From the NCBI GenBank assembly GCA_963675295.2, contig CAXXKJ010000002.1, forward strand, positions 3,072,001 to 3,136,000: a stretch of 64,000 nt of DNA. The letters run 5' to 3'. The notes below the pieces were generated by a model, which searched no databases, was not told where the DNA came from, and saw only the letters and a list, made by a program, of their open reading frames with translations. This DNA is from a bacterium (GTDB lineage: Bacteria > Electryoneota > Electryoneia > Electryoneales > Electryoneaceae). Both the position numbers and the translations under genes were made by a program. This document shows positions 36,927-57,003 of this stretch, piece after piece (within the stretch, counting starts at the first letter, position 1; the number at the start of each line of letters is the position of its first letter).

Positions 36927-36962
36927 TGAAACAGTCCTCTGAAACAGTTGCAATTCTGCACC
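36927..36962. promoter_or_regulatory. Putative enhancer (UAS) for the sigma54 activator
   Basis: TGAAACA twice plus GTTGCA-N4-TGCACC, about 100-130 bp upstream of the -24 box. Confidence 0.5.
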
Positions 36963-37043
36963 ACACACACTACTTTCTTTTCAAATAACTTAGACCGAGT
37001 TTGCCGTACTGGCAGACTCCCGAACCAGATTTCGGATCCCCCC

Positions 37044-38432: not shown

Positions 38433-38567
38433 CCCTGAGCGCGCTGACTCGTGGAATCCCGCGGGCAGGCGTGGCATGAATCCCAGTATATTGCAGCTCA
38501 CGTTTGGTTGACCGGCATGAACGACCCGGAGGACGGTTTGAGCGGAGAGTGGATGAGACCCCGAAAC

Positions 38568-39851: not shown

Positions 39852-39863
39852 CCGGAGGATGAG

Positions 39864-40332: not shown

Positions 40333-43164
40333 ATGAAGTTTACCACGAAAATCCTGATGATGCCGCTGGCGGCACTGCTTGCGTTGACAACGATTTTCGG
40401 GTTGTTGTGGCGCACCGGTACCACCACCCTGCAGCAGTATGACCTCATCCAGGAAGAGCACGTCCATGCTCTCGAACTCAGCCACAAGATGGAAAAGCTG
40501 GCGATTGAGATTCGCCAGAATCTTGCCGATGCAGCCACGGTCGGCGATCCGGACCGTGTCCTCGAAGCGGACAGCCTCGCACGTGAATTTCGCTCCGATC
40601 TGGAGGAATTCAAGAGCATTCCCAGTGTTGACGTCGCCAGCATCACCGTCGTCAGTGCCACCTTCAGCGAATATTACGACCACGCGCGCAACACGTCATT
40701 GCGGATGCTGGATCAGGAACTGAGTGACGACCTGATCGCGGAAGCGATCCAGATGAACGCCGACTTTGAGCAACTGGTGGACCAGCTCGATGTCGCCACT
40801 CAACGCCGTCAACAGGGCATTGCGGACGCGTTCGACGTCGCCCGCGAGAGTCTGCAACACTCGGGCAAGGGGATCAGCCTGACCATTCTCGCGTTGCTAC
40901 TGGTGTTGCTGGCAGTGTCTTTCGCAGCGATAGCGTCGGTGTTGCGTCCGCTCCGACGTTTGATGAACGCGACCGAGGCGATCACTCGTGGCGACCTGAA
41001 CGCGAACATCGATTACGACTGCAAGGACGAGATGGGTCGTTTGGCCGACTCGTTCCGGCACATGCAGACCAGCCTGATTGCGGACATCGAACGCCGCGAG
41101 AAGATGGAAGCGGCGATCCGTGACAGCGAAAAGATGTACCGTCTGCTGGCGGACAACAGTTCGGATGTCATCTGGACGATGGACCGGGAAGGCCGGTTCA
41201 CCTACTTCAGTCCGTCCGTGCATCGTCACCTCGGCTACACCCCTACCGAAGCTATCGGGCTGACGATGGAGGATCTGTTTCCGGATACCCAATGCGTCGA
41301 ATTTCGTGCGGCCACAGAACAGTTGTTTGACCGCAAGAATGTTCGTCACGATTCCGTCCAGGACACCAAGCTGCTGCGCCGCAAAGACGGCAACACCATC
41401 TGGTCGGAGATTACCGCCAACCTGTTGATCGACGAAACGGGCGAGGCGGTTGGCTTGAGCGGTGTCGCGCGTGACATCACCGACCGCAAGCTGGCACAGG
41501 AAGCGCTGCGTGAAAGCGAAGAACGGCTGCGTTCCATTTTCATGAACAGCACGCTCGGCATTTTTCGCACCACTCCGCAGGGTAAGGTTATCGCCGCGAA
41601 TCCAGCCGCTGCTGAGATGTTCGGATACGAGGACCCCGAGGAAACCGCGCGTGAGATTGACGACATCTCGCAGGAATTGTACGCGGACCCGGAAGATCGT
41701 GTCTGGGTGATGGAAGCGTTACAACTCAACGGGCAGATGAACGCCGAGCTGATGTTCCGCCGTCGTGGCGCGGACGATTCCCACTTCCCCGCTCAGCTCA
41801 ACTTGTGGACGGTAGCCAACGAAGACGGCAGCATCCGTTGCATCGAGGGCATGATCGAGGACATCACCGACCGCCGCCAGTTGCTGGAAGCGGTGCGGCA
41901 GAGCGAGGAACGGCTGCAGCTCGCGTTTGACGCCGCCAATGACGGGTTGTTTGATCACAACCTGAAGACTGGCACGATGTACCTCAGCCCACGCTATTAC
42001 AGCATGCTGGGGTATGAGCCGGGCGATTTCGAACCGAGCATGAACAAGGTCATCGAGCTGCTGCATCCGGATGATTTTGAAAAGGGCCCGCAGGCGTTCG
42101 AAAAACACCGGAAGACGGGCGAACCATACGATCTGGAAGCCCGTTTCCGTCACAAGAACGGCGAGTGGATCTGGATTCATACCCGCGGCAAGGTGGTCGA
42201 GTGGGACGAAGATGGTGAGCCGTTGCGCTTCGTCGGCACCAACGTTGACATCACCAAGCGCAAGCAGGCCGAAGAAGAGCTGAAGCTGGCGCAGCAGGAA
42301 CTGCTGGACGCCGCCCACAACGCCGGCATGGCCGAGATTGCGACCAGCGTGCTGCACAATGTCGGCAACGCATTGAACGGCGCAATCACCTCGACGACGG
42401 TGATGGATAAAACGCTGAAACACACGCGTCTCAGCCATCTCACCCGTCTCGCCGGCCTGATCGACCAGCACAAGGACGATCTCGCGAACTTCGTCGCCAC
42501 CAGCGAACAGGGCAAGAAGCTGCCGCAGTTCTTCAACCAGTTGAGCGAAGTCATTTCCGGCGAACACGCCCGCATCAAGGACGAATTAAAGTCTTTGGAG
42601 AAGAGCCACGAACACATCCGCCAGATCATCGCGCTGCAACAGCAGTATGCAGGCATGCCGGGCTACAAGGAGGATGTGTACGCGGCGGATTTGGTCAATG
42701 ACGCGGTGCAGTTGTTCGGGGCGTCGTTCCAGCGGCACAGCATCAAGTTCAAGGTCGACCGTCCGAAGAATTTGCCGGCGGTACATGTTGAAAAGCACAA
42801 GGTGCTGCAGATCCTGATTAACCTGCTGAAAAACGCGCGCGACGCGGTGCGCGACACGGATCGCAGTGACCGCGAGATCACGGTGCACATCCATCAGAAC
42901 GGCACCGATGATCTGAAGATCGAGGTGAAAGACAACGGTGTCGGGATCCGGGACGAGGACATGCAGAAGATCTTCGGCTACGGATTCACCACCAAGCGCG
43001 ACGGGCATGGTTACGGCCTGCACGGTTGCGCCAACAGTGCCCGGGAGATGGGCGGTGAACTGACAGCCAGCAGCGAAGGGGCGAACAAGGGTGCTACCTT
43101 CACGCTGACGCTTCCACTGGAAGAAACCGAGGATCAACGTGCCCGAACCGCAGACGTGGAATAA
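40333..43164 (+). CDS. Membrane sensor histidine kinase (HAMP, three PAS, HisKA, HATPase)
   Basis: Two TMs, DEMGRLADSF HAMP, three PAS/PAC (DITDRK, DITDRR, DITKRK), ATSVLHNVGNALN, QILINLLKNA, DNGVG, GHGYGLH. Confidence 0.92.
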   Translation: MKFTTKILMMPLAALLALTTIFGLLWRTGTTTLQQYDLIQEEHVHALELSHKMEKLAIEIRQNLADAATVGDPDRVLEADSLAREFRSDLEEFKSIPSVDVASITVVSATFSEYYDHARNTSLRMLDQELSDDLIAEAIQMNADFEQLVDQLDVATQRRQQGIADAFDVARESLQHSGKGISLTILALLLVLLAVSFAAIASVLRPLRRLMNATEAITRGDLNANIDYDCKDEMGRLADSFRHMQTSLIADIERREKMEAAIRDSEKMYRLLADNSSDVIWTMDREGRFTYFSPSVHRHLGYTPTEAIGLTMEDLFPDTQCVEFRAATEQLFDRKNVRHDSVQDTKLLRRKDGNTIWSEITANLLIDETGEAVGLSGVARDITDRKLAQEALRESEERLRSIFMNSTLGIFRTTPQGKVIAANPAAAEMFGYEDPEETAREIDDISQELYADPEDRVWVMEALQLNGQMNAELMFRRRGADDSHFPAQLNLWTVANEDGSIRCIEGMIEDITDRRQLLEAVRQSEERLQLAFDAANDGLFDHNLKTGTMYLSPRYYSMLGYEPGDFEPSMNKVIELLHPDDFEKGPQAFEKHRKTGEPYDLEARFRHKNGEWIWIHTRGKVVEWDEDGEPLRFVGTNVDITKRKQAEEELKLAQQELLDAAHNAGMAEIATSVLHNVGNALNGAITSTTVMDKTLKHTRLSHLTRLAGLIDQHKDDLANFVATSEQGKKLPQFFNQLSEVISGEHARIKDELKSLEKSHEHIRQIIALQQQYAGMPGYKEDVYAADLVNDAVQLFGASFQRHSIKFKVDRPKNLPAVHVEKHKVLQILINLLKNARDAVRDTDRSDREITVHIHQNGTDDLKIEVKDNGVGIRDEDMQKIFGYGFTTKRDGHGYGLHGCANSAREMGGELTASSEGANKGATFTLTLPLEETEDQRARTADVE

Positions 43165-44566
43165 CCGTCGCATTCTCCTCGTGGACGACCAGGAACAGAT
43201 CCACGAGGATTACCGCAAGATTCTCACCCCGGACGACTCCCACGGGCAGGAAGTCGACCAGCTCGCCAGCGATTTCTTCGGCGACGACGACAGCGAACCG
43301 TCCGCTGGCAACAGCAACCAAGTCGAACTCCCATCATTCCAGCTCGAATCCGCCTACCAGGGCCAGGAAGCGCTGGAAATGGTCAAACAGGCGCTGGAGG
43401 CGGGAATTCCGTACTCGCTGGCGCTGGTGGATGTGCGCATGCCGCCAGGCTGGGACGGCATCGAGACCATCGACCGCATCCTTCGTGTCGACAAGGACAT
43501 CCAGATCGTCATCTGCACCGCCTATGCAGACTATGTCTGGGAGGATATCCACGACACCTTCGGCGCGCGCGACAACATCCTCTTCATGCGCAAGCCGTTC
43601 GACGCAACCGAGGTTCAGCAGCTAGCGTGCACATTGACCGAAAAGTGGAACCTCGCACGCCAGGCGAGGATGAAGGTCGAGGAGCTGGAAACCCTCGCTG
43701 ACCAGCGTACGCGTGAATTGCAGCAGAGCAACGAGGAACTGCAGGACGCGATGACCGACCTGCGCCGGACGCAAGTGCAGTTGATTCAGTCGGAGAAGAT
43801 GGCATCATTGGGTTCGATGGTCGCCGGTGTCGCGCATGAGATCAACACGCCGATCGGTGCCGTTGCCAGCATGCACAGCACGCTCGTCACCGCGATCAAG
43901 CGCATGAACGACATCCTCAATGACATGTGCGACGAATCCGACCCGCGGCTGAAAAAGCTGGAAAAGACGATGAAGGTGATCGGCGACGCAAACCGGGTGA
44001 TTTCGTCCGGCACCGAACGTGTCACCACCATCGTCAAGCGGCTCAAGAGTTTCGCGCGGCTGGATGAGGCCGAGCTGAAGACGGTCGATATTCATCAGGG
44101 ATTGGACGATACGCTCGAAATCGCGCATCACGAACTGAAGTACGCGGTGAAAGTGGTACGGGAATACGGCGATGTGCCGGAATTCGCCTGCTACCCGAGC
44201 AAGCTGAACCAGGTGTTCCTCAACCTGTTCATGAACAGCCGCCAGGCGATTGAAACCACGGGCACGTTGACCATCCGCACCCGGGTTGAAAACAATCAGG
44301 TGGTCATCGAAGTCGCGGACACCGGCAAGGGCATCAAGGCGGAGAATCTGAAACGCATCTTCGACCCTGGGTTTACGACGAAGGGTGTCGGAGTCGGCAC
44401 CGGGCTCGGCCTGTCCATCGTGTTCCAGATCATTGAAGAACACTTCGGCACAATTGAAGCCAGCAGCGAAGTCGGGGTCGGGACGACATTTACCATCCGT
44501 TTACCGCTGGATCTGGAAGAACGCATCGAACGCAAGAAGAGGGGCGGCAAACCGCACTCTGCGTGA
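43139..44566 (+). CDS. Hybrid receiver / histidine kinase
   Basis: ILLVDD..VDVRMPPGWDG..KPF receiver; EKMASLG..AHEINTP; LNQVFLNL; GTGLGL. Confidence 0.92.
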   Translation: MPEPQTWNNRRILLVDDQEQIHEDYRKILTPDDSHGQEVDQLASDFFGDDDSEPSAGNSNQVELPSFQLESAYQGQEALEMVKQALEAGIPYSLALVDVRMPPGWDGIETIDRILRVDKDIQIVICTAYADYVWEDIHDTFGARDNILFMRKPFDATEVQQLACTLTEKWNLARQARMKVEELETLADQRTRELQQSNEELQDAMTDLRRTQVQLIQSEKMASLGSMVAGVAHEINTPIGAVASMHSTLVTAIKRMNDILNDMCDESDPRLKKLEKTMKVIGDANRVISSGTERVTTIVKRLKSFARLDEAELKTVDIHQGLDDTLEIAHHELKYAVKVVREYGDVPEFACYPSKLNQVFLNLFMNSRQAIETTGTLTIRTRVENNQVVIEVADTGKGIKAENLKRIFDPGFTTKGVGVGTGLGLSIVFQIIEEHFGTIEASSEVGVGTTFTIRLPLDLEERIERKKRGGKPHSA

Positions 44567-44729
44567 GGTGAACGGTCAATAGCGGAGCGCTCTCCGGTGC
44601 TCCCGAACGTTCCCCGGATTCCTCCCCCCCGCACATCCCGTCCTATACTCACGTTTAGCTTTTTTTCAGCCGTTTTCTACGGCACCACAGGGTTCATCAC
44701 GATCGGTTTCGATTGCGGTGGGAGAACGC

Positions 44730-46052
44730 ATGAAGCCATTCCTTAAGACTTTTTCCATTGGATTCACTGTCATCCTGCTGGCGGGTCTCGTGCTTTGTCC
44801 GGAGCGTGTTTTCGCCGGGGACGATGACACAATCTACCAGCCGTCCATGACTCACGCGGACAGCGTGAAAGCGTGGCAGGAAGCGGTAGACAACGACAAC
44901 GCGCTGGATGTCACCGGCGACGTGATCGGCGAAGTTGTCTTTATCCCGTTGCGAGTCGTGTTCACCGGTGTCCGGGAAGGCGCACGGATCGTCAGCGAGG
45001 AGCAGCTGATCGCCAAGGTGGACGATTTCCTCTCGTCCGATGATGGCACCCGCCGAGTCGTGCCAATCGCTTCGCCGACCACCGGCCTCGGCGCGAAGTT
45101 CAAGTACAAGCCGGACCCGACGATCAAGGCGAATATCGCGCTGCTCGGGGCGTGGTGGATGTACGGCCGCCAGACCTACCGTCTGCACGCCGAAAAATGG
45201 CCGTTGCTGCCGCATGTCACCGGCCACCTCGCCGGCGAATACCATCTCTATCCCGACGAACGGTTCTATGGCATCGGGATGGCGACGAAGAAGTCAGATG
45301 AAGTGTTCTACCGGCACGAAGCGACATTCGCCGAAGCCGGGCTTGGATTCGACCTGCATCGCTGGCTGGAACTGACCGCACATGGCGAATACCGCGCGAA
45401 CAACCTCTACAACAGCGTGCTGAAGCCAACCGTCAACTTCGACACCTACGGTAGTGTGCAGAACCTGGCGCCGTATTCGGGCCGGATTGACATGGCCAGC
45501 ACCACACTGGCACTCGAGTTTAACACCGCGGTCAACCGTGCACGCCCGATGAACGGTTTCGTCACCAGGGTTTCCGGCGGATATCACAACCAGGTGGATG
45601 GCGACGATTTCGGCTACTGGGACTCTCGTGTCCTGATCGGGAAATACTTCCACATCATGTACGAGCGGGTGCTGTATTTCGACATCGCCGGCCAGTTCAC
45701 CGAACCGTTGACCGATCGTGCGATTCCGTTCTTTGAATTGCCGGAGTTGGGTGGCCGGGAAACGTTACGCGGCTTCAAGCGCGGACGCTACAGCGGCGAG
45801 CACACGGTACTGGGAACGGTCGAATACCGCATGCCGATCCGTGACATCTGGTCGGAATCGGGCTTCGATTTCGCCTTCTTCGCCGACTGGGGCAAGGTTG
45901 TGCAGGATGATGTCAGCGACTGGGACATGGATTCGATGCAGATCGGGTATGGATTCAGCTTGCAAACGTGGACGCTGGCCGGTGCGGCCGCGCGTCTCGA
46001 CGTCGGTTTCAGCCGTGAAGGCACACGGCTTTACTTCACCATGGGGTTGTGA
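44730..46052 (+). CDS. Omp85/BamA-TamA-family beta-barrel without evident POTRA domains
   Basis: Signal peptide; RFYGIG; LGGRETLRGFKRGRY loop-6 motif; EYRMPI; FADWGKV; terminal LYFTMGL. Confidence 0.78.
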   Translation: MKPFLKTFSIGFTVILLAGLVLCPERVFAGDDDTIYQPSMTHADSVKAWQEAVDNDNALDVTGDVIGEVVFIPLRVVFTGVREGARIVSEEQLIAKVDDFLSSDDGTRRVVPIASPTTGLGAKFKYKPDPTIKANIALLGAWWMYGRQTYRLHAEKWPLLPHVTGHLAGEYHLYPDERFYGIGMATKKSDEVFYRHEATFAEAGLGFDLHRWLELTAHGEYRANNLYNSVLKPTVNFDTYGSVQNLAPYSGRIDMASTTLALEFNTAVNRARPMNGFVTRVSGGYHNQVDGDDFGYWDSRVLIGKYFHIMYERVLYFDIAGQFTEPLTDRAIPFFELPELGGRETLRGFKRGRYSGEHTVLGTVEYRMPIRDIWSESGFDFAFFADWGKVVQDDVSDWDMDSMQIGYGFSLQTWTLAGAAARLDVGFSREGTRLYFTMGL

Positions 46053-46054
46053 TC

Positions 46055-47719
46055 ATGAAAACTCGCGACGCCATGATTGTGCTGCTCGTTTTATTGACGC
46101 TGACAGGTTCGTGCTTCGCTGGGGCGTACACCCCTCCCCCGCCGGTGCCGGATGACAGTGCGCCAATTCCGAAGCCGGAGTTTTCCGGCGCGCTGGATGA
46201 CTTCGCGGAAGGTATCAACTACGAATTCATTTACAGCCTGAAGAATACGCTGAACATCAGCCGTCAAATCCGTTGGCTGACCGATACACCGAAGCAGGCG
46301 TTGAACGTCAACGCGTTCGGCGAGGTGGACGATAATTCGTGGTTCACCAACCGGAACGCGCTGCACCCAATGAGCCTCGACGAAATCTCTCGCGGGGCGT
46401 GCCGTGGTGACGGTCCGGACACGGAACACACGTGGATCATCAAGCGTGCGAAAGCGGAAGGTGTCACTCCCGGCTTTCACATCAAGGACGCCCGCGGCGA
46501 CCGCTACGTCATCAAGTTCGACCCGATCGGCTACGGTGGGCTGAATTCCGGCGCGGATGCCTGTGGCGCGATATTCTTTTACGCGGCAGGCTACAACGCC
46601 CCTGAGAACTACATCGTCTACTTCGATCCCTCGATCCTGCAGCTTGATCCGGACGGCGTATCGTTCACCGATTCCGATGGCCGCAAGCGGCATATGACCG
46701 AAGAGGATCTGGAGGCCGTACTGGACCGTGTCAACATTCTGCCGGACGGCCGCATCCAGTGCCTCGCCAGCAAGTACATCCAGGGCGATCTGCTCGGTCC
46801 GTTTTCGTTCAAGGGCACGCGCGAGGATGACCCCAACGACTTCGTCCCGCACCATCACCGGCGCGAGTTGCGCGGGCAGAAGGCGTTCGCGGTGTGGGTC
46901 AATCACTACGACGCCAAGGGCGCGAACTCGATGGACGCCTACGTCGGCGAAGACGGCGATGGGCATGTCGTCCACTACATGATGGACTTCGGCACCGTGC
47001 TCGGTTCGGGCGGACGCGGCCCGTATCCGCTCTTCCGTGGTTACGAGGACGAAATCCCGACTGGTCCGTTGATGCGGAAGATTGTCACCCTCGGTCTCGA
47101 TGTCCGCGACTACGAAAAGCCGGACCCGGTGCTGTATCCGAGTGTCGGCCGTTTACGCAATGCGTCACTGAACCCGGACAAGTACCGCACTGTGTTCCCG
47201 AATCCGGCGTACGACAACGCCACCGACCTCGATATGTACTGGGGTACGAAACTGGTGACGTCGTTCACCGACGAACAGATCCGGGCGATCATCGAAACTG
47301 GTCCGTATCCGCCGGGCGGGGTTGACCACCTGGTGACCGTGCTCAGCGAACGCCGTGACATCATCGGCCGCACTTACTTCGGCCGGGTCAATTGCCTTGA
47401 CCGGTTCGAGATGGCCGACACGGACGTACTCGCGTTCGACGATCTCTGGGTCGAGATGGGCTACAGCGCGGCGGACGATGTCGTGTACAAATACGAACTG
47501 CAGAATGAGGACGGCGAAGTCCTCTCCTGCGGCGAATTTGCCGGCACCGAGCTCGAGCTGCCTCTGATCCCGGACAGGCTGGGTGAACACAACCAGATAC
47601 GAGTGGAGTTGCGTCTGAAGCGGAGTGATGAAAAGAAGTTCGGGCGATACGTTCGAGTATGGCTCGAAGACGATCTCGCAGGCGGGTATCGTCTCCTCGG
47701 TGTGGAACGGGAGGAATAG
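46055..47719 (+). CDS. Exported protein with atypical protein-kinase-like (HipA/PI3K-like) motifs
   Basis: Signal peptide; KAEGVTPG (G-loop), YVIKFD (beta3 Lys), NHYDAKGAN (catalytic loop), MMDFG. Confidence 0.7.
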   Translation: MKTRDAMIVLLVLLTLTGSCFAGAYTPPPPVPDDSAPIPKPEFSGALDDFAEGINYEFIYSLKNTLNISRQIRWLTDTPKQALNVNAFGEVDDNSWFTNRNALHPMSLDEISRGACRGDGPDTEHTWIIKRAKAEGVTPGFHIKDARGDRYVIKFDPIGYGGLNSGADACGAIFFYAAGYNAPENYIVYFDPSILQLDPDGVSFTDSDGRKRHMTEEDLEAVLDRVNILPDGRIQCLASKYIQGDLLGPFSFKGTREDDPNDFVPHHHRRELRGQKAFAVWVNHYDAKGANSMDAYVGEDGDGHVVHYMMDFGTVLGSGGRGPYPLFRGYEDEIPTGPLMRKIVTLGLDVRDYEKPDPVLYPSVGRLRNASLNPDKYRTVFPNPAYDNATDLDMYWGTKLVTSFTDEQIRAIIETGPYPPGGVDHLVTVLSERRDIIGRTYFGRVNCLDRFEMADTDVLAFDDLWVEMGYSAADDVVYKYELQNEDGEVLSCGEFAGTELELPLIPDRLGEHNQIRVELRLKRSDEKKFGRYVRVWLEDDLAGGYRLLGVEREE

Positions 47720-47720
47720 A

Positions 47721-48959
47721 GTGACGCTTCAGACCTCCTCCCGGATCCTCGTTCTGACCCTCGCCGTGGCGGTGTTGCTGAACGGTTGCGCGTCAAAAGG
47801 ACTGCTCACCGACCGCTACGACGCGGACGAAGTGGCTGTACCGCGGCTACTGCCCGAGGACCTGCACAATCACAACCCGCGCTTTATCGTGATCGGCGAT
47901 GAACAGAAGGGCCGTAGAGTCATCGAGGATTTCTACCGCAAGGAGAATTGGGCGACGTGGTGGCAGCTGGCGGTTCCGTTCTACCAGATCTACCTGTTGT
48001 ACAACGGCATCTCTGGCGGGATCAATTACCTCCGGCACGTGCCGGACGCCGGTGACGAAACGCGCACCATGATGCGGGACGTGCTGTATCGTGACGCGAA
48101 GGAGTTCGGCGCGACGTTCGTCCTTGAAACCGGCGACATCGCCGCTGCGGACGGACGCTACCCCGACCACTGGGAGGTGTTTCTTGAGGGCAAGAAGTGG
48201 TCGCATCCGTTCCTGTCCGAAATTCCCTACGTGCCGACCATCGGCAATCACGAGTGGGCCAACGACACCACCTACGCGTGGCCGAACTACCAGGCGGTGT
48301 TCGACTATCCGCGATTTTACGCGATGGAATTCAAGTCAGCCGTGTTGATCGTGCTGGACTCCAATTTTCTCGTCGACCAGTGGGAGCTGATCCCGGACGA
48401 CGAGCAGGAGAAGCTGTACAAGGAATGGTTCGTCAGCGGCGAAGGTACGTCGTGGCTGGAAAAAACCCTGGCGAAGTATGCCGATAAACCGTTCAAGATT
48501 GTCAGCATGCACCACCCCCCCATTACGTACGGCTGGCACTGGGTTGACTGGTACAAGGACCATTTTGGCCGTAACCTGACAGACAAGCGTCGTGAGCTGC
48601 TGCAATTGTTCGCGGACAGTGGCGTGCAGGCCGTGTTCTCCGGACACGAACACATTTACCAGCACAATCCGACCCACCTGTTATCCGGTGGCAATACGCA
48701 CACTATCCACTTTTATACCAGCAGCGGCGGCGGAGTACCGATTCGGTCCGTGCCACCTGTCGAACAGTTGGAGGAGCTGCGGTACAAGTATCGCCAGGAA
48801 GGGTTGGGCGCTCATCAGCCAACAATCTTGAGTGAGTACCATTATTGTCTGGTGTCTGTCGAGGGTGACCGGCTGATCATCGACACGATGGTCGTGGACC
48901 GTGACGATCCAGAGCATGAATCGAGTTTGTTCGAACGGACGGTGATAGACGCACCCTGA
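47721..48959 (+). CDS. Lipoprotein calcineurin-like metallophosphoesterase
   Basis: Lipobox LNGC; GDEQ, TGD, GNHE, MHHPP, SGHEH; GTG start 1 nt after the upstream stop. Confidence 0.85.
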   Translation: MTLQTSSRILVLTLAVAVLLNGCASKGLLTDRYDADEVAVPRLLPEDLHNHNPRFIVIGDEQKGRRVIEDFYRKENWATWWQLAVPFYQIYLLYNGISGGINYLRHVPDAGDETRTMMRDVLYRDAKEFGATFVLETGDIAAADGRYPDHWEVFLEGKKWSHPFLSEIPYVPTIGNHEWANDTTYAWPNYQAVFDYPRFYAMEFKSAVLIVLDSNFLVDQWELIPDDEQEKLYKEWFVSGEGTSWLEKTLAKYADKPFKIVSMHHPPITYGWHWVDWYKDHFGRNLTDKRRELLQLFADSGVQAVFSGHEHIYQHNPTHLLSGGNTHTIHFYTSSGGGVPIRSVPPVEQLEELRYKYRQEGLGAHQPTILSEYHYCLVSVEGDRLIIDTMVVDRDDPEHESSLFERTVIDAP

Positions 48960-49020: not shown

Positions 49021-50361
49021 ATGACCAATCCATTCCAGGTGATTTCGGGGATCAAGCGCAAGGAATTGCCGCTGGCGCTGCTGATGTTCGCGTATTTCTT
49101 CCTCGTGATCACGAGCTTCTGGATTCTCAAGCCGATCAAGAAGTCGTTGTTCATCTCGTACTACGACGTCGGCGGATTCAATCTGTTCGGCTGGCTGATG
49201 AACGCCTCCCAGGCCGAACTGCTGGCGAAAGTGCTTAACATGGTCGTCGCGGTGGTCGCGGTGACGGTGTTTACGTTGCTCGTGCGACGCATGCGACGGC
49301 AACAACTGACCTACGTTTTCTCCGCCTTTTTCATCATCAGTTACGGTCTTTACACCTTCCTGCTCTCGAACCAGAGCGGCGCGGTGGTGTGGTCATTCTA
49401 CCTCTTCGGCGACCTGTACAGCACGTTGATGGTCGCCACCTTCTTCGCGTTCATGAACGACAGCGTCAATGCCAACGAAGCAAAGCGGATGTACGGCCTG
49501 GTGGTGCTCGGCGGGGTCACCGGCGGCGTGTTTGGTACCAGTTCGCTTCGGCTGTGGATTGACGCGCTGTCGTCGTCCCAGTGGATGTGGGTCCTGATTG
49601 CGGTTGCGTTTGTGATCCTGGTGATCGCGTATGCGGCCGGCCGGCTGGTTGAAAAGCGACCGTTGACCGCGGCGCCCGCACCAGCCCCGAAGCCGAAACC
49701 AGCGAAGGACGAACAGAAATCGTCCAGCAGGAATGCGGCGTTCGAAGGCGCGGCGCTGGTGTTCCGCAGCAAGTATTTGCTGGCGATTGTGGCGATTGTC
49801 GGGTTGTACGAGATCGTCAGCACCATCCTCGACTTTCAGTTTACCGCCACAGTGGCACATTTCAAGGACGGCGCGGAGATTGGTGAACACTTTTCGACAG
49901 TGTTCGCGATCACCAACTGGACCTCGCTGCTGGTGCAATTCTTCCTCACCTCGATCATTCTGTCACGGTTCGGGGTGATGGTCGCATTATCCATCCTGCC
50001 GATGATCATGATTTTTGCGTCTGGTGGATTCCTGGCGGTGCCGATCCTGTGGATGGGCAGCATGTTGAACACGGCGGACAACGGCTTCAGCTATTCAATC
50101 AACCAGTCGGCGAAGGAAACGCTGTATGTCCCGACCGACCGTGATACGAAGTACAAGGCGAAAGCGTTCATTGACATGTTTGTCCAACGGTTCGCAAAGG
50201 CGATAGCGGTCGGAGTGTCGCTGCTGGTGACCAGCATTTTCGCGTCGTTCGAGAGTATCCGTTGGCTGTCTTTGTTCACGATTGCGATTGTCGTGCTGTG
50301 GTTGATCGCGGTACGTTATGCCGGACGGGAGTTCAAGCGGTTGACGCAGGAGTCGAAGTAA
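49021..50361 (+). CDS. NTT/TLC-family (Npt1/Npt2) nucleotide transporter
   Basis: About 12 TMs; ILKPIKKSLF, EAKRMYG, LYVP..KYKAKAFIDMFVQRFAK. Confidence 0.85.
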   Translation: MTNPFQVISGIKRKELPLALLMFAYFFLVITSFWILKPIKKSLFISYYDVGGFNLFGWLMNASQAELLAKVLNMVVAVVAVTVFTLLVRRMRRQQLTYVFSAFFIISYGLYTFLLSNQSGAVVWSFYLFGDLYSTLMVATFFAFMNDSVNANEAKRMYGLVVLGGVTGGVFGTSSLRLWIDALSSSQWMWVLIAVAFVILVIAYAAGRLVEKRPLTAAPAPAPKPKPAKDEQKSSSRNAAFEGAALVFRSKYLLAIVAIVGLYEIVSTILDFQFTATVAHFKDGAEIGEHFSTVFAITNWTSLLVQFFLTSIILSRFGVMVALSILPMIMIFASGGFLAVPILWMGSMLNTADNGFSYSINQSAKETLYVPTDRDTKYKAKAFIDMFVQRFAKAIAVGVSLLVTSIFASFESIRWLSLFTIAIVVLWLIAVRYAGREFKRLTQESK

Positions 50362-51146: not shown

Positions 51147-51526
51147 TCACACGGTGCTACAGTGTTGCTGTGATATAGCGTGCGTGATCCAGTCCCGGGT
51201 TGCGCACGTTTTCTCTCTCCGGGTAGCCCCGCTTTCACGCCTGTGTGTTCTTTGCCCCACAGCCGTATCCTCCGCCCCACGCCTGCCACCGGTCGATCTG
51301 GCGGATGGCTCCTCGCTGCCCGAGCCTGAGAGACTTCGCATCCTTGTTGTATGAACAAACTTGACGGCTATCTCCCTGCTTTTGGGAGTCATTGGCATCT
51401 CCTTTGCGTGCTTTTCGGGCAGAATTGGAGGGAACAACCATCGTTTTCAAGCGTTCGTCATCATCTATGGAGATTCAATTCGATTGATAGATTCGGAGGG
51501 ATTTTTTTAACTTGGAGAGGGGCATC

Positions 51527-52246
51527 ATGAACACGAAGCATGGTTTGCTTGCTGGAATCATTGTACTCTTGCTATTAGTAATGGCATTACCCGTATCTTC
51601 AGGACTTTTTGAAGACGATGAAGAGTATTACAGCGATGATCACCCGAATATGATCCAGTTTGGACTGGATGAGACGGTCACCCTGGCTTGGGCACACCGG
51701 GCGTTCGGTGAGTACCTGATCCGCTACGGTGTCGACCTCAACTATTGGGGTTCGGACGAGGAGATAACCCGGACCTACGCGGACCCGGACACGACGCTGT
51801 TCGACGCGGGTAGCGGCCACGACTATTACACCAGCCTGCATGTCGATTTCATCAAGCCGTTCGAACCTTACAAGCAGGTGCGTGTGTATGTCGGCGGTGG
51901 CCCGTTCTTCAGCTGGGGTGACCACGAAACCCGTGACAAGGTTTTGATTGATCAGGACTACAATCTCCCTGACTATTTCGCCAAATACACGACGCAAACC
52001 AGCCGTGTCGGTGCGCGTGCGCTGGTCGGCGGTGAGTTTGCGATCAATCAACGCGTTGGTGTCTTCTTCGAAACCGGGATCAAGGCGTACCAGGAATGGA
52101 AAGCGTACAACAACTACGAGAAACAGCCCCTGTTTGACCCGGTTGCTCAGTCCTACTACTATGCTGATCACAAGCGGGAGTACGATTATTCCCGTTGGAA
52201 TGTGAACATGGACAACGTGATGATCGGAATCACGTTCCGCTACTAA
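51527..52246 (+). CDS. Outer-membrane beta-barrel protein, paralog of the upstream gene
   Basis: QFGL..LAWAHR, LHVDFIKP, RVYVGGGP, ALVGGEF, NVMIGITFRY. Confidence 0.75.
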   Translation: MNTKHGLLAGIIVLLLLVMALPVSSGLFEDDEEYYSDDHPNMIQFGLDETVTLAWAHRAFGEYLIRYGVDLNYWGSDEEITRTYADPDTTLFDAGSGHDYYTSLHVDFIKPFEPYKQVRVYVGGGPFFSWGDHETRDKVLIDQDYNLPDYFAKYTTQTSRVGARALVGGEFAINQRVGVFFETGIKAYQEWKAYNNYEKQPLFDPVAQSYYYADHKREYDYSRWNVNMDNVMIGITFRY

Positions 52247-52403
52247 GTTTCAGTTGATGGATCTGTTCTGAACGCGCCCAATCGCGATTCAGACGTCACC
52301 CGGCTCCCGGATTGCCCCATGCACGGTTCGGAGCCGGGTGATTCACGTTGTACCTTGCCGTGCGAATCGAACCCCGAATTTGCAGACAGCCGAACGCGTC
52401 ATC

Positions 52404-55265
52404 ATGCAGAAACCCCTGTTGCGCAAAGCACTCAACCTCGAGCCCGGTGAGGGGAAACGGGCGGCGTTGATGTTCAGCTATATCTTCCTGCTGATCGCTA
52501 CGTTGCTCGTGGTCAAGCCGGTGCGCAACTCGCTGTTCCTCACCCATTTCGGCATTGAAATGCTGCCGTACGCGTTCCTGCTCGTGGCGGTGGTATCCGG
52601 CGTGTTCGTCGCGATTTACACCCGTGTTGCGAACAAGGTCCGGCTGGATAGATTGATCCAGTATACGCTGGGCAGCAGTGTCGCGACAATCATCATCCTC
52701 TGGCTGTTGTTGCAGCTGCACTATGAGGCCGGGTGGTTCTTCTTCCTGCTCTATGTCTGGGTGGCGATCTTCGGGGTGCTGGTCACGACACAGTTCTGGC
52801 TGCTCGCGAATTATGTGTTCAACGTCCGCGAGGCGAAACGCATCTTCGGCCTGCTCGGCGCGGGCGGGATCGCCGGTGGCATCTTCGGCGGCTATTTCAC
52901 CAATATCCTCGCCCCGTTCGCCGGTAGCGAGGACTTGCTGCTGTTTGGTGCGTTGTTCCTGATCGGGTGCATGGTGCTGGTGCAGTTTGTCTGGTCCATG
53001 GGCGCGCAGGAAGCCTACCGCGAACAGACCCAGCGCCGCCGCAAGCGTCAGAGCGCGGACTTCGAAGGCGCAAACCCACTGCAGATTGTCTTTGGTAACC
53101 GCTATTTAACCCTGCTCGCGACGCTGATTGGAATCGGTGTCATCATCGCCAACCTCGTCGACTACCAGTACAGCGCGATCGCGACTTCGGTGATTACGGA
53201 CGAGGACAAGCTGACCGCCTTCTTTGGGTTCTGGCTGTCAACGTTGAGCGTCTTCTCGCTGGTAATTCAGCTGTTGCTAACCAGCCGCGTACTGCGACGC
53301 TACGGTGTCGGCGGATCGTTGTACTTCCTCCCCGGCGGTGTTCTCGTCGGATCGATCATGGTGCTGATCTCCGGCGGATTGACCTCGGCGGTGATGATCA
53401 AGCTGTTCGAGGGCGGGTTCAAGCAGTCGATCCACAAGGCCGGGCTGGAACTGTTGTGGTTGCCGATTCCGACCTCTGTGAAGAACCGGGTCAAGGCGTT
53501 CATTGATATCTTTGTCGACAACACCGCCACCGGCATTGGCGGCCTGCTGCTGATCCTGCTCGCCGACCAGCTCGGCTGGGGAATTGGCGGGGTCAGCGGG
53601 CTGATTATCGGGCTGGTCGCGGTGTGGCTGGTGTTGAATGTGATCGTGCGGCGTGAGTACGTGCAATCCTTCCGCACGGCGATCGAAAAGCGCAGCATCC
53701 GTCTCGATCAGCAGGTGGTCAACGCCCAGGATCCGGCGCTGCTGGAAACAGTCATTCCGGCGCTGGAAACCGGCAACCAGAAGCAGGTGCTGTACGCGCT
53801 GGACCTGATCGAGCATGTGCGGCACGAGGAGATCAAGAAACGACTCACCGCCGTGTTCGAACGGCATCCCTCGCGGGATGTGATCACCCGTGTGTTGCAC
53901 AATGCGTTGCACTATGACGATCTCGACCTGCGTGACATGCTGCAGCCGTACCTGGAGCATGAGGACGCCGAGATCCGGGTCGCGGTGGTGACGTACCTGG
54001 TGACCTGGGCGGACGATCAGGCTGCGGCGTTGACGGAGCTGCTCGCCAATAACAGTGTGCGTGTGCGCATGGCGGCGCTACGTGTGACAGCAGAACTGGG
54101 AAGGCACCAGAAGAATGTCCGCACCGCAATCGATTTTCAGCGGCAGTTTGAAAGCCTGCTGATGCTGTTCGACGAACAGACGGCAGGCGAGGAACCGGAT
54201 GAGGAGTTGATCAGCGCGTTGCGTGTCGAGCTGGCGGAGGTGCTGGGTGCGGTGAACCTGCCGGAGCTGTACCCGTACCTGCACATGCTGCTCGCGGATG
54301 AGTCGGTTCCGGTGCTGCGTGCGGCGGTGCGTGCGGCAGGATCAACGCAGTCGGACGAATTCCTCTACACGCTGGTCGCGCACCTGAACACCAAGTATGT
54401 GCGCAAAACCGCCCGTGACGCGCTCGCGATGTACGGCGAGGCGCAGATCCCGATGTTCATCGATCGGCTCAACGATCCCACCGAGAACCAGTACATCCGG
54501 CTCAGCATTCCGGGCGTGCTCGCACGGATCGGGACTCAGGCCGCCGCCAAGGCGTTGCAGGACAATCTCGTCCAGGACAACATTCACTTGCGGCACGAAT
54601 GCATCCGTTCGTTGAACCGGCTGCGCAACGAGTACGAAGATCTGCGGCTCGATCGTTCGCAGCTGGACGAAAACCTGCTCGAGGAAGCGCGAACGTATTA
54701 CTTCACACTCGAGATACTGCAGCAGCAGGTGGATGGGCGGGATAGCGTTGCGTCGCGTTTCGCGTCTGAGAATTTTCCGCGTGCCCGTAAGCTGCTGGTC
54801 CGGGCGTTGGAAGAGCGGCTCGATCGTAATCTCGAGATCATCTTCCGGCTGCTGGGACTGCGTTACGTGCCGGAAGACATGAAGAACGCGTACATGCAGG
54901 TGACCGGTTTGAAAATGGACTTGCGTGCGGACGCAATCGAGTTTCTCGACAACGTGCTCGATCAGAAGTTGAAACGGGTTGTGTTGCCGATGGTGGAAAC
55001 GCCGAACGTGGATGTTAAACTCGAGCATGGACGCGAGTTGTTCAGCCACGATCCGCCGTCCGGCGAGTATTGCCTGCAGATGCTGCTCGAAGGCGACGAC
55101 GATTGGCTCAAGGTGTGTACTTTGTATGCGATCGGCGAGAGTGGTGACCGGTCGTTGAGCCCGATGGTTGAGGCGCATCTGATGGCCAGCGAGCGTATCG
55201 TTCGGGAAACAGCTGATCTCGCCTACCGCCGGCTGAATATTGAACTCGACAAGATGGGAGCGTAA
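52404..55265 (+). CDS. NTT-family nucleotide transporter fused to HEAT repeats
   Basis: VKPVRNSLFL, QFWLLANYVFNVREAKRIFG, RVKAFIDIFV; C-terminal HEAT-like repeats (EIRVAVV, VRMAALR, VLRAAVRAAG, RADAIEFLDN). Confidence 0.85.
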   Translation: MQKPLLRKALNLEPGEGKRAALMFSYIFLLIATLLVVKPVRNSLFLTHFGIEMLPYAFLLVAVVSGVFVAIYTRVANKVRLDRLIQYTLGSSVATIIILWLLLQLHYEAGWFFFLLYVWVAIFGVLVTTQFWLLANYVFNVREAKRIFGLLGAGGIAGGIFGGYFTNILAPFAGSEDLLLFGALFLIGCMVLVQFVWSMGAQEAYREQTQRRRKRQSADFEGANPLQIVFGNRYLTLLATLIGIGVIIANLVDYQYSAIATSVITDEDKLTAFFGFWLSTLSVFSLVIQLLLTSRVLRRYGVGGSLYFLPGGVLVGSIMVLISGGLTSAVMIKLFEGGFKQSIHKAGLELLWLPIPTSVKNRVKAFIDIFVDNTATGIGGLLLILLADQLGWGIGGVSGLIIGLVAVWLVLNVIVRREYVQSFRTAIEKRSIRLDQQVVNAQDPALLETVIPALETGNQKQVLYALDLIEHVRHEEIKKRLTAVFERHPSRDVITRVLHNALHYDDLDLRDMLQPYLEHEDAEIRVAVVTYLVTWADDQAAALTELLANNSVRVRMAALRVTAELGRHQKNVRTAIDFQRQFESLLMLFDEQTAGEEPDEELISALRVELAEVLGAVNLPELYPYLHMLLADESVPVLRAAVRAAGSTQSDEFLYTLVAHLNTKYVRKTARDALAMYGEAQIPMFIDRLNDPTENQYIRLSIPGVLARIGTQAAAKALQDNLVQDNIHLRHECIRSLNRLRNEYEDLRLDRSQLDENLLEEARTYYFTLEILQQQVDGRDSVASRFASENFPRARKLLVRALEERLDRNLEIIFRLLGLRYVPEDMKNAYMQVTGLKMDLRADAIEFLDNVLDQKLKRVVLPMVETPNVDVKLEHGRELFSHDPPSGEYCLQMLLEGDDDWLKVCTLYAIGESGDRSLSPMVEAHLMASERIVRETADLAYRRLNIELDKMGA

Positions 55266-56331: not shown

Positions 56332-56584
56332 AAGCCATTAAGGGGCACTCCTGCTCTGGTATCATCGCGTGCGTACTTCACCGATCCCATACGATCCTTT
56401 AATGCGGGCAAGAAATTGTCTATGACTATTATTCTCAATTGTTTCATTGTATATTTCCTCTAAGAGCCTAGTTAGGTATACTTATCTGTTACCCCCCCCC
56501 CCATGACTCGCTCATTATATATGCATCTATTAGACATCCATGCACGGCGGGTGCGTGGAAATACTAGTAGAGGGGGAAAATCTC

Positions 56585-56986: not shown

Positions 56987-57003
56987 GTTCTAGAGAAATT
57001 CAA

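Follow-up and report, generated by a model that had tools for sequence, protein, structure and literature searches.

A family of kinase-like proteins with export signals, encoded next to a POTRA-less Omp85-family barrel

The window, that is the whole stretch of 64,000 nucleotides analysed here, encodes a protein of 554 amino acids which carries export signals, belongs to an unnamed family and, judging from its predicted structure, very probably has a PKL fold. Our best reading, to which we give a probability of roughly one in two, is that of an outer-membrane-anchored periplasmic phosphotransferase that would work with the Omp85-family barrel encoded just upstream. The initial annotation had drawn attention to a near-complete kinase motif set in an exported open reading frame. 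This observation was confirmed: every quoted string was located in the 554-residue translation, in the order claimed. The reading frame as called extends from 46049 to 47719 on the plus strand (556 amino acids from a GTG), and the ATG at position 46055 gives the 554 amino acids used as reference below.

46055..47719, plus strand: kinase-like gene, 554 amino acids, encoding a predicted exported PKL protein of an unnamed family (ORF listing and translation)
46055..46114, plus strand: predicted signal peptide, residues 1-20, with the permissive lipobox L-T-G-S-C20; cleavage by SPase I after C-F-A22 is also possible (translation)
46115..46432, plus strand: N-terminal region, residues 21-126, with a Pro-rich P-P-x-P-x-P-D-D followed by helices and the SSWFTNRN motif (alignment A1 and model)
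46433..47389, plus strand: predicted PKL catalytic core, residues 127-445 (secondary structure of the model and conservation)
47396..47710, plus strand: C-terminal all-beta domain, residues 448-552, eight strands (DSSP of the model)

The hydrophobic N-terminus is closed by TGSCFA-G (residues 17-23). In the N-terminal region, Asp34, Pro41, Trp96 and Arg100 are invariant in alignment A1, Arg100 being kept in 137 of 138 sequences of a MAFFT alignment of 151 members, and the AlphaFold2 model displays helices at residues 49-65 and 68-75. The core contains successively beta1, the Gly-rich loop (Lys133, Gly136 and Gly140, in the region KRAKAEGVTPGF, residues 130-141), Lys154 of beta3 (in YVIKFD, residues 151-156), Asp168 of alphaC (in LNSGADAC, residues 163-170), the family signature D259-P-N-D262..H266..R270-E-L-R273, the catalytic loop H284-x-D286-x-K288-x-x-N291 (in VNHYDAKGAN, residues 282-291) and D311-F-G313 (in MMDFG, residues 309-313). 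In its sequence, the protein thus has two marks that are characteristic of PKL proteins, namely a catalytic Asp and Asn located five residues apart and followed by a DFG-like Asp, and a beta3 Lys which would be paired with an alphaC acid. The C-terminal beta domain is less conserved than the core, and all its sequence matches are sub-threshold.

The AlphaFold2 model has a pLDDT of 89.8 and a pTM of 0.89. Lys154 is found on the strand 150-155 and Asp168 in the helix 163-178; the catalytic loop (residues 283-291) follows the helix 270-282, and Asp311 comes after the strands 292-297 and 303-309. The order of the elements given by DSSP (beta1, Gly-rich loop, beta2, beta3, alphaC, beta4, beta5, alphaE, catalytic loop, beta7, beta8, metal-binding loop) is that of the PKL fold. 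A Foldseek search of the PDB gave 13 matches at E<=1e-3, and the 12 that were shown are all Fam20C, Fam20A, a hydra Fam20 or CtkA of H. pylori. Kinases represent at least 41 of the 43 rows listed, and the matches also include PI4KIIalpha, HipT and ordinary protein kinases. The named matches of a structural search in a viral library were PI3K/PI4K, Ser/Thr kinases and CotH, and the nearest named clusters of the protein atlas, which serve as leads only, were Fam20C (0.81), HipA_2 (0.80) and PI3_PI4 (0.79). The families to which the motif pattern had been likened at the outset (HipA, PI3K-like, CotH and Fam20) are thus the nearest named neighbours by Foldseek and in the protein atlas, and the structural check then proposed, a Foldseek search with an AlphaFold2 model, came out as a PKL fold and not as another one. 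The TM-scores are low (0.28-0.31 when normalised by the query and at best 0.55 when normalised by CtkA, with RMSD of 9-20 Å), and the fold assignment is therefore drawn from several weak lines that agree rather than from one strong match. In the 40 members scanned, every Pfam kinase model stayed below its threshold, the best being HipA_2 with 15.5 bits for a cut-off of 27, and the sequence searches against solved structures, made with the single protein and with the family profile, gave only matches at the level of chance (a chitinase at 0.6 and an IgA Fc receptor fragment at 0.027).

The family is composed of 2509 representatives of clusters at 50% identity and has been found in at least 502 species genomes; among 8000 proteins scored, 1106 are homologues at E<=1e-3. 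The window protein is matched by no Pfam or NCBIfam model in the profile scans, and the source name of all the 120 homologues listed is "hypothetical protein", so that the description of the family as uncharacterised stands. These homologue numbers, together with the confident model, the conserved motifs and the synteny described below, are opposed to the idea that the motifs arose by chance in a spurious or non-functional reading frame. The motifs exceed chance, and this explanation, which is extremely improbable, was rejected.

The conservation of residues was counted in the alignment made with MAFFT from the window protein and 150 listed representatives of the 50%-identity clusters (n=151). 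Lys154 is conserved in 143 of 149 sequences, Asp286 in 145 of 151 and Asp311 in 144 of 150; lack of conservation of these Lys and Asp residues had been named beforehand as an argument against a kinase, and the opposite was found. Asn291 is conserved in 140 of 151 sequences and Lys133 in 130 of 146. The alphaC Glu had been described as not obvious, and Glu is indeed absent from the window protein. The position is not lost, since it is filled by Asp168; the Glu seemed to be missing because this protein has Asp where the family mostly has Glu (112 Glu and 30 Asp in 150 sequences, that is an acid in 142). Across the 151 diverse members, each of the five active-site positions (beta3 Lys, alphaC acid, catalytic Asp and Asn, DFG Asp) is conserved at 93-96%. 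At position 288, Arg is more common than Lys (75 Arg and 44 Lys, giving R/K in 119 of 150), and no more than 101 of 151 sequences have His284. The residues Asp262, His266, Arg270 and Arg273 are conserved in 151 of 151 sequences, and Gly179, Asp393 and Trp396 are also invariant in the columns scored.

A search for longer fused forms has recovered only two proteins, P0269 and P0270 (about 1160 amino acids), which contain no Pfam domains; they were rejected as fusions with a barrel or a TLC transporter and considered as a divergent branch. This branch (P0269) lacks Lys154, Asp286 and Asn291. Since it has lost them, these residues appear to be retained elsewhere in the family rather than structurally obligatory.

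This degenerate branch, the Arg found mostly at position 288, the lack of any kinase Pfam model over threshold and the fact that the most invariant residues (Asp262, His266, Arg270, Arg273, Gly179, Asp393 and Trp396) differ from those of classical kinases, which suggests a family-specific site, would be consistent with a PKL fold having another chemistry, such as AMPylation or another transfer as in SelO-type proteins, or having none, the protein being then a nucleotide-sensing or structural barrel lipoprotein comparable to the BAM lipoproteins. Chemistries other than that of kinases are known among PKL proteins. However, the set formed by the Lys, the acid, D-x-K/R-x-x-N and DFG, at 93-96% in 151 members, is a pattern typical of phosphotransfer; if the role were purely structural, these residues would not be kept, and the phosphatases encoded nearby suit a phosphate cycle. 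We consider this alternative as unlikely. The window protein is probably an active NTP-dependent transferase.

The comparison with known kinases gives likenesses of several kinds. The Fam20 kinases provide the best Foldseek matches (5yh2_B at 9.4e-5 and 4kqb_A at 1.4e-4) and the nearest atlas cluster. Like the window protein as we read it, they are PKL enzymes that act beyond the cytosol, their compartment corresponding topologically to the periplasm. They depend on ATP delivered by a transporter. They include the pseudokinase Fam20A, to which the degenerate P0269 is a parallel. There is, however, no sequence kinship, the Pfam model of Fam20C (PF06702) being unmatched at E<=10 in any of 40 members; the TM-scores are only 0.28/0.35, and the window protein differs in that it carries a putative lipoprotein signal, ends in a beta domain, and has an Omp85 partner and a DPND..H..RRELR signature specific to its family. 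CtkA gave the best target-normalised TM-scores (0.50-0.55, with E from 4.5e-4 to 1.2e-3), and HipT was also matched. HipA_2 (PF20613) is detected below threshold in 8 of 40 members at E<=10, the six matches inspected sharing one N-lobe register, and HipA_C in 3 of 40. Neither HipA model (PF07804, PF20613) reaches its Pfam cut-off, and the alignment of E. coli HipA with the family profile by hhalign gave a probability of 0.3%, which is a weak test with a single-sequence template. The HipA loop is D-x-H-x-K-N (T-D-G-H-A-K-N in E. coli) without DFG, whereas the window protein has Y-D-A-K-G-A-N, that is D-x-K-x-x-N, plus DFG. Moreover, HipA and HipT act in the cytoplasm as the toxins of toxin-antitoxin pairs, and no antitoxin-like gene is found near the kinase-like gene. 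Finally, the Hanks-type kinases have an identical motif spacing (H-x-D-x-K-x-x-N then D-F-G, with the beta3 Lys and the alphaC acid), and many ePK structures are present among the weaker Foldseek matches. In contrast with them, neither the window protein nor the 40 members match the Pfam model Pkinase (PF00069), the spacing from Asn291 to Asp311 is of 20 residues, an insert of about 75 residues lies between the N-lobe strands and the helix 270-282, and the protein is predicted to be exported rather than cytoplasmic.

In the 230 full-length members, a regex and hydropathy heuristic of our own detected a lipobox Cys in 136 sequences and a hydrophobic N-terminus without lipobox in 83; the 11 sequences with neither have mostly truncated starts. 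One or the other export signal is thus present in 219 of 230 members. In the window protein, the permissive lipobox coexists with the alternative A-x-A-like site, and Cys20 is aligned with the "GC" lipobox column of the family (alignment A1). The protein is very likely extracytoplasmic. The export signal agrees with the earlier idea of a secreted kinase, in which the word "secreted" was imprecise: because 136 of 230 members carry the lipobox Cys, an outer-membrane lipoprotein appears more likely than a free secreted protein.

The conserved gene partners carry most of the functional information on this family. The neighbourhood of the gene in the window is as follows.

43139..44566, plus strand: hybrid histidine kinase (receiver, HisKA and HATPase), upstream (Pfam)
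44718..46052, plus strand: POTRA-less Omp85-family outer-membrane barrel with 16 strands and a helical N-terminal region (Pfam Omp85 and model)
47721..48959, plus strand: metallophosphoesterase lipoprotein, signal ending L-N-G-C (Pfam Metallophos, 9.6e-11)
49021..50361, plus strand: NTT/TLC-family nucleotide antiporter homologue, 446 amino acids (Pfam TLC, 3.5e-28, 99.1 bits for a cut-off of 21)
51177..51210, plus strand: first strong terminator-like hairpin past the gene string, 14-bp stem (consensus scan only)
52338..55265, plus strand: second TLC-family transporter, fused to HEAT repeats, 975 amino acids (Pfam TLC, 9.5e-12, and HEAT_2, 6.4e-19)

The eight terminator-like sites of the region are fewer than in shuffled sequences (mean 12.1). 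Two small paralogous probable outer-membrane proteins adjoin the NTT gene, and the organism also encodes a type IX secretion substrate (Por_Secre_tail).

The TGA stop of the barrel gene is located 2 nt ahead of the ATG of the kinase-like gene. The barrel matches Pfam Omp85 at 1.3e-15 (58.2 bits for a cut-off of 24) and is related by Foldseek to BamA/TamA at E about 1e-12. Its model (pLDDT 85.7) contains helices in residues 49-104, including a long helix 62-94, then the 16 strands. Arg351 and Gly352 are nearly invariant in alignment A2, and we take them to be the conserved R-G-F/Y loop-6 motif of Omp85. The Pfam scan detected no POTRA domain and the model displays no beta-alpha-alpha-beta-beta unit, residues 49-104 being helical; the barrel was therefore placed in the POTRA-less ("noNterm") Omp85 group, which is treated in the available parts of PMC4104836 and PMC11358297. 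Neighbours were counted in 80 loci, which are the best-scoring of at least 502 and are consequently skewed to close relatives. In 70 of them a barrel gene precedes the kinase-like gene on the same strand, 300 nt or less away in 63; these numbers come from tblastn, the single-linkage clustering of the locus ORFs having lumped histidine kinases with barrels (cluster c1). The pair of barrel and kinase-like genes spans many phyla. A complex prediction of the mature barrel (residues 34-444, A2) with the mature kinase-like protein (residues 20-554, A3), run without controls, gave ipSAE values of 0.28 and 0.21 for a mark of 0.32, which weigh neither way on binding. We hold with good confidence that the two proteins form a functional unit.

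Two natural fusions were found, each in one of the 150 listed representatives and each from metagenomic gene calls. In P0251, the kinase-like domain is followed by a C-terminal barrel (Pfam Omp85) that aligns with the barrel of the window at E=1e-14. In P0259, one reading frame comprises a TLC transporter, a lipoprotein-type signal and a kinase-like domain; given this internal signal, the gene call may have joined two genes. A crude hydropathy count, which misses helices, gives 11 segments in P0259 and 9 in the TLC protein of the window. A third candidate, P0254 (glycosyltransferase and kinase-like domain), was rejected as a functional fusion and read as adjacency, its internal lipoprotein signal being retained. 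The long ORFs L044 (1183 amino acids), L046 (1386), L048 (1024) and L039 (985) had no Pfam match, and their length was treated as start-codon over-extension or additions of unknown nature.

The order of barrel then passenger and the tight coupling of the two genes could also indicate that the barrel is a type-V-like translocator, of two-partner secretion or PlpD style, the kinase-like protein being displayed or secreted to act on neighbouring cells, prey, polymers or minerals. The order of passenger then barrel in P0251, as in a type Vd autotransporter, the helical N-terminus of the barrel with the long helix 62-94 before the first strand, and the type IX secretion substrate of the same organism speak in the same direction. 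TpsB and PlpD translocators have POTRA domains, of which the barrel model is devoid. The Pfam scan of the passenger revealed no TPS-type domain, so that neither mark of two-partner secretion was detected, and the match of the barrel with ShlB is weak (20.6 bits for a cut-off of 22.7). Furthermore, ATP would be scarcer outside the cell than in a transporter-fed periplasm, the members are mostly lipoproteins by the above heuristic and not free secreted proteins, and the NTT and phosphatase lipoprotein genes better suit a periplasmic cycle. Display or secretion is thus unlikely. The available text of PMC11358297 describes an arrangement that speaks for transport: in Leptospira, lipoprotein genes are located directly downstream of POTRA-less Omp85 genes on the same strand, as in the window, and a transport role has been raised for those barrels. 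Those lipoproteins carry DUF1566 or Big/integrin domains, whereas the presumed lipoprotein is here a PKL protein, and "kinase" has 0 occurrences in the paper.

The metallophosphoesterase gene, whose likely start is the GTG at 47721, begins 1 nt past the stop of the kinase-like gene. Its product weakly resembles a purple acid phosphatase (2.1e-4) and a GpdQ-type phosphohydrolase, and matches NCBIfam SpdA at 2.6e-6, well below the cut-off. A relative is present in 22 of the 80 loci by tblastn, 19 of them having it downstream on the same strand and 16 at 300 nt or less. PAP2 genes also form clusters near relatives of the window protein, in 7 and in 3 loci. Residues 123-444 of the NTT homologue, which has 446 residues, align at E=3.3e-11 with a solved structure of the chloroplast ADP,ATP carrier protein 1 (9j3j), and another solved ADP,ATP carrier structure (9j3n) is matched at 3.9e-9. 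The homologue scores 83.9 against NCBIfam TIGR00769 for a cut-off of 387; by its sequence it is a distant member of NTT/TLC. By tblastn, 42 of the 80 loci have an NTT/TLC gene, which lies downstream on the same strand in 33 and at 2 kb or less in 30. Among the 57 loci flanked by 3 kb or more at each end, 35 have it. The loci with this gene are labelled Zixibacteria, Calditrichota, Ignavibacteria, Latescibacterota, KSB1, Gemmatimonadota, Rhodothermales and Acidobacteriota. As NTT/TLC genes are absent within 6 kb from 38 of 80 loci and Metallophos genes from 58 of 80, neither is obligatory in cis. A histidine-kinase relative is present in 23 of 80 loci by tblastn, upstream on the same strand in 16. 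The window encodes one free-living bacterial NTT and one NTT-HEAT fusion, an architecture which is widespread and uncharacterised according to the available part of PMC5381601, where the function of NTTs in free-living bacteria is called unknown.

In the reading that we prefer, the kinase-like protein would be exported across the inner membrane as a catalytically competent PKL member, most probably lipidated at Cys20, and anchored at the periplasmic face of the outer membrane. The two genes would constitute a translationally coupled module, the barrel being the anchor, partner or substrate gate of the kinase-like protein. Lys154 and the alphaC acid 168 would position the nucleotide phosphates, Asp286 would be the catalytic base, and Asn291 and Asp311 would bind the metal, so as to transfer a phosphate from ATP to an envelope substrate that could be a protein, a lipid or a glycan. 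The metallophosphoesterase lipoprotein would act as the opposing phosphatase. The NTT homologue might, as a tentative proposal, supply the ATP by exchanging cytoplasmic ATP for periplasmic ADP. Small solutes leak through the outer membrane, so that ATP would be hard to retain in the periplasm. In the available part of PMC5381601, the characterised NTTs, from parasites and plastids, are all nucleotide importers; ATP export is something that we only infer. An extension to many diderms of the FCB group, Acidobacteriota and Gemmatimonadota, which would run a dedicated periplasmic ATP-driven phosphorylation cycle with NTT export of ATP for ADP, a barrel-docked kinase acting on envelope or transiting substrates, and removal of the phosphate by the phosphoesterase, is doubtful.

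The import activity of the characterised NTTs (PMC5381601, as far as available), the weak matches of the Metallophos protein with cyclic-nucleotide phosphodiesterase models (SpdA, below cut-off) and with GpdQ, and the two small probable outer-membrane proteins beside the NTT gene would fit nucleotide scavenging, with the barrel as entry, the phosphoesterase trimming, the NTT importing and the kinase-like protein binding or re-phosphorylating nucleotides in the periplasm. This is very unlikely: a kinase needs a phosphate donor, and such a scheme supplies none in the periplasm; the near-universal partner is the barrel (70 of 80 loci) and not the NTT (42 of 80). We know of no Omp85 barrel acting as a solute channel.

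The literature search found no description of the family or of an Omp85-kinase-NTT module; an oral-microbiome preprint on PKL discovery may cover exported PKL families. The terms "periplasmic kinase", "periplasmic ATP" and "extracytoplasmic kinase" are absent from 15 papers that it listed. In the available text of PMC5381601, "export" occurs 0 times and no link between NTTs and an exported kinase-like protein was met.

Known envelope phosphorylations use lipid-linked donors, and the periplasm is generally taken to lack ATP. The present family extends the kinase-like superfamily by a branch that has no annotation. It suggests that targets may be phosphorylated, in some bacteria, within a compartment which is usually considered as ATP-free. 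It makes the question of an ATP-driven phosphorylation of proteins, lipids or glycans outside the bacterial cytoplasm directly testable, as well as the roles of the POTRA-less Omp85 barrels and of the NTTs of free-living bacteria. If the periplasmic cycle were true, bacteria would have their own equivalent of the Golgi system formed by Fam20C and an ATP importer, and it would give a long-missing function to the NTTs of free-living bacteria.

The protein under study is encoded by a single long ORF at 46049..47719 (+) of the window, in which the ATG at 46055 opens 554 residues, with the same coordinates as in the initial annotation. The G+C content of this region is 0.58-0.60, similar to that of the remaining window. 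The motif strings on which the initial annotation had based an exported kinase-like protein are all found in the translation, in the order claimed: a hydrophobic N-terminus ending T-G-S-C-F-A-G (residues 17-23), K-R-A-K-A-E-G-V-T-P-G-F (130-141), Y-V-I-K-F-D (151-156), L-N-S-G-A-D-A-C (163-170), V-N-H-Y-D-A-K-G-A-N (282-291) and M-M-D-F-G (309-313). A scan of the protein with Pfam and NCBIfam gave no family, the sole row being DUF7348 with E=0.12.

A model was obtained with AlphaFold2 (mean pLDDT 89.8, pTM 0.89) from an alignment (A1) of 40 homologues, hand-picked at spaced ranks out of 120 listed. In the predicted structure the elements follow one another as in a protein-kinase-like domain, with N-lobe strands (residues 127-133, 140-144 and 150-155), a helix (163-178), further strands, a second helix (270-282), the loop that holds the putative catalytic residues and the strands after it (292-297 and 303-309). 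This core is flanked by an N-terminal region (21-126) and by an eight-stranded C-terminal domain (448-552). Foldseek detected 13 matches in the PDB at E<=1e-3, and the 12 shown are Fam20C, Fam20A, a hydra Fam20 and CtkA from H. pylori. Judged by description, at least 41 of the 43 listed rows are kinases; the others are 21dh_A, which is described as an MBP-monobody complex and has a probability of 0.33, and 3q5i, which has an uninformative name. The TM scores are 0.28-0.31 when query-normalised and at best 0.55 when CtkA-normalised, with large RMSD; such modest values are to be expected when a remote relative carries additional domains, but they leave no one match decisive for the fold. Three other lines agree with this kinase-like assignment. 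Each named match in a viral structure library is to a PI3K/PI4K catalytic domain, a Ser/Thr kinase or CotH. The nearest named atlas clusters are Fam20C (0.81), HipA_2 (0.80) and PI3_PI4_kinase (0.79), all under the line of 0.9 and hence leads only. Finally, 8 of 40 members match Pfam HipA_2 below the threshold, and in the six at E<=0.15 the N-lobe (approximately residues 129-200) aligns to profile positions 1-70.

Conservation was calculated from an alignment of the protein with the full set of 150 listed cluster representatives, in which fragments and long forms were kept. The putative catalytic residues K154, D286 and N291 are kept in 143/149, 145/151 and 140/151 sequences, respectively, K133 and G136 in 130/146 and 139/146, and D311, F312 and G313 in 144/150, 134/150 and 117/151. 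Position 288 is Arg in 75 and Lys in 44 of 150 sequences. The alphaC Glu, described as not obvious in the initial annotation, does exist in the family, since position 168 is Glu in 112 of 150 members and Asp in 30, the window protein having Asp. Residues more constant than the classical kinase ones define the family: G179, D262, H266, R270 and R273 (151/151 each), D259 (150/151), D393 (149/149), W396 (148/148) and R433 (145/146). The segment D-P-N-D..H..R-R-E-L-R runs into the helix 270-282, right ahead of the putative catalytic loop, and we suspect that it provides a site for the substrate or a phosphate.

The loop D-x-K/R-x-x-N followed by D-F-G corresponds to the Hanks-type pattern, a likeness at the level of motifs, and differs from the loop of HipA, which reads D-G-H-A-K-N; CtkA and the HipA-like kinases are similar in overall shape. 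Sequence membership tests placed the protein in none of the Fam20, Hanks and HipA-like kinases. In two family proteins of about 1160 aa (P0269 and P0270), K154, D286 and N291 are replaced by Ile, Leu and Lys, and about 600 additional C-terminal residues are present, in which a Pfam scan found no domain. This divergent branch looks like a pseudokinase offshoot, resembling the pseudokinase members known in other kinase families. A rival explanation for the window protein is another nucleotide-dependent chemistry, or a role as scaffold, to be weighed against the retention of K154, D286 and N291 in most representatives.

A word-indexed search (8000 candidates scored) recovered 1106 proteins at E<=1e-3. 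The 120 homologues listed among them display 42-94% identity over 91-100% of the query, no Pfam domain is precomputed for any of them, and the source name, where given, is "hypothetical protein" throughout. When the representatives of 50%-identity clusters were searched exhaustively, 2509 matched at E<=1e-3, of which 1679 reached E<=1e-10 and 687 reached E<=1e-30. In contigs from one genome per species, at least 600 stretches fitted two peptide patterns; 502 of these were confirmed and the best 80 loci retained. The labels among these 80 include Calditrichota, Zixibacteria, Latescibacterota, Ignavibacteria, KSB1, Marinimicrobia, Krumholzibacteriia, Gemmatimonadota, Rhodothermales and many Acidobacteriota. 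One locus (L001), labelled merely "bacterium", is syntenic with the window and 94% identical. On sequence grounds, the protein belongs to a real, large and unnamed family; a literature search yielded no publication describing it or its gene module.

The N-terminus has a basic start, then a hydrophobic stretch, then L-T-G-S-C20-F-A-G, where Cys20 lines up with the consensus G-C of alignment A1. By a simple rule of our own (a lipobox pattern behind a hydrophobic stretch), applied to those of 268 fetched family proteins that have a Met start and 500-650 aa (230 in number), a lipobox was detected in 136 and a hydrophobic N-terminus without lipobox in 83; the 11 with neither mostly have obviously truncated starts. 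Since such N-termini extend across the family, the protein is predicted to be extracytoplasmic, and lipid-anchored in most family members. For the window protein itself, cleavage by signal peptidase I after C-F-A is an alternative to lipidation.

The features surrounding the gene are the following:
36948..38432 (+), sigma-54 activator with PAS domain
38451..39851 (+), unannotated ORF, 466 aa
40333..43164 (+), HAMP/PAS histidine kinase, 943 aa
43139..44566 (+), hybrid histidine kinase, 26-nt overlap with the preceding gene
44718..46052, upstream of the kinase-like gene, Omp85-family protein (Pfam 1.3e-15)
47721 (GTG start), lipoprotein-type calcineurin-like phosphoesterase, signal ending L-N-G-C
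61 nt beyond the phosphoesterase gene, TLC/NTT protein (ATP/ADP-antiporter family), 446 aa
50415..51146 and 51512..52246 (+), two small unannotated paralogous ORFs, 243 and 244 aa, between the two TLC genes
51177-51210 (+), earliest strong terminator-like hairpin past the kinase-like gene
52338..55265 (+), second TLC transporter, fused to HEAT repeats (the NTT-HEAT architecture), 975 aa
55840..56331, lone receiver protein
57090..59069 (+), ORF with C-terminal type IX secretion sorting domain (Por_Secre_tail 2.9e-7)

The TGA of the Omp85 gene lies 2 nt ahead of the ATG, and the GTG of the phosphoesterase 1 nt past the TAG. The model of the Omp85 partner (pLDDT 85.7) begins with a signal helix and a disordered stretch, continues with helices 49-58, 62-94 and 97-104 and ends in 16 strands; it has no POTRA domain, and Foldseek matched it to the barrels of BamA and TamA (E ~1e-12). 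The distant matches of the phosphoesterase are purple acid phosphatase and GpdQ, and the 446-aa TLC/NTT protein matches solved ADP,ATP carrier proteins (E=3.3e-11 and 3.9e-9). The two small ORFs (33% mutual identity, E=2e-44; no Pfam or NCBIfam family for either) each have a hydrophobic N-terminus and the C-terminal end T-F-R-Y, as in small outer-membrane beta-barrels; their relatives occur near the kinase-like gene in only 2 of 80 loci. Upstream of the module, the genes from 36948 to 44566 (+) form a dense signalling block ending with the PAS and hybrid histidine kinases. In the 2-kb block 56001..58000 the G+C content falls to 0.40, against 0.55-0.63 elsewhere in the window, and the ORF 57090..59069 may be a recent acquisition.

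Neighbours were counted by tblastn of the flanking proteins against the best 80 of at least 502 loci, so that the rates may be lower among distant members. The Omp85 barrel is matched in 71 loci, lying upstream and co-directional in 70, of which 63 have it within 300 nt; of the nine others, four have less than 310 nt of upstream DNA, and no match was found despite sufficient flank in L016, L026, L037, L057 and L064. TLC/NTT is matched in 42 loci (co-directional and downstream in 33, no more than 2 kb away in 30), including 35 of the 57 that have 3 kb or more of flanking DNA on each side, the labels spanning at least eight phylum-level groups; a short and a long TLC gene are frequently in tandem. 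The metallophosphoesterase is matched in 22 loci (co-directional and downstream in 19, no more than 300 nt away in 16) and the hybrid histidine kinase in 23 (16 upstream on the same strand), histidine kinase genes recurring close by in 20-23 of 80. Unbiased clustering of the locus ORFs revealed a Hanks-type kinase cluster in eight loci and PAP2 phosphatases in two clusters, c6 (L005 3617-4564, L009, L014, L025, L064, L065 and L068) and c8 (L035 7391-8386, L036 and L045). The substrates of PAP2-superfamily enzymes are lipid phosphates at the periplasmic face, so the recurrence of these genes hints at a lipid substrate. A second family gene or fragment lies a few genes off in L019, L037, L039 and L059, sometimes again behind a barrel gene, suggesting that the module was duplicated in tandem.

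Three longer forms among the 150 listed representatives were informative, each being a single metagenomic gene call. In P0251 (999 aa) the kinase-like domain follows a signal peptide and precedes an Omp85 barrel (Pfam 2.9e-6), which matches residues 73-395 of the window barrel (E=1e-14); in P0259 (986 aa) the domain comes after a TLC transporter and a lipoprotein-type signal; and in P0254 a glycosyltransferase lies ahead of it. The two forms with an internal signal peptide may be adjacent genes read as one; the fused forms support adjacency of their genes, and P0251 possibly a physical link to the barrel. Passage of the kinase-like protein to the cell surface via the barrel, in a type-V-like manner, is a rival explanation of this pairing. 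The pair resembles the POTRA-less Omp85 and lipoprotein gene pairs of Leptospira, whose lipoproteins are adhesin-like, unlike the kinase-like protein; PMC11358297, which describes those pairs, never mentions a kinase.

The best-supported reading is that the protein would be an outer-membrane-anchored periplasmic phosphotransferase, forming a unit with a POTRA-less Omp85 barrel and working like the secretory-pathway kinase Fam20C. It would phosphorylate an envelope substrate, and the exported phosphatases beside it would reverse this reaction; their frequent proximity fits such a cycle. An enzyme with this fold needs a nucleoside triphosphate, of which the frequent NTT neighbour is a possible source. 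As NTTs are antiporters, the steep cytoplasmic ATP level could push ATP out in exchange for ADP, and we infer that ATP may be supplied in this way. Nucleotide scavenging by the module is a rival explanation. It accords with the direction of transport in the characterised NTTs, all of which are importers, from parasites and plastids, according to PMC5381601, in which the NTT-HEAT architecture is widespread and uncharacterised and the role of both types in free-living bacteria is given as unknown. The protein is rated as representing a new family of the kinase-like superfamily, with an unusual compartment and an unusual set of conserved partners.
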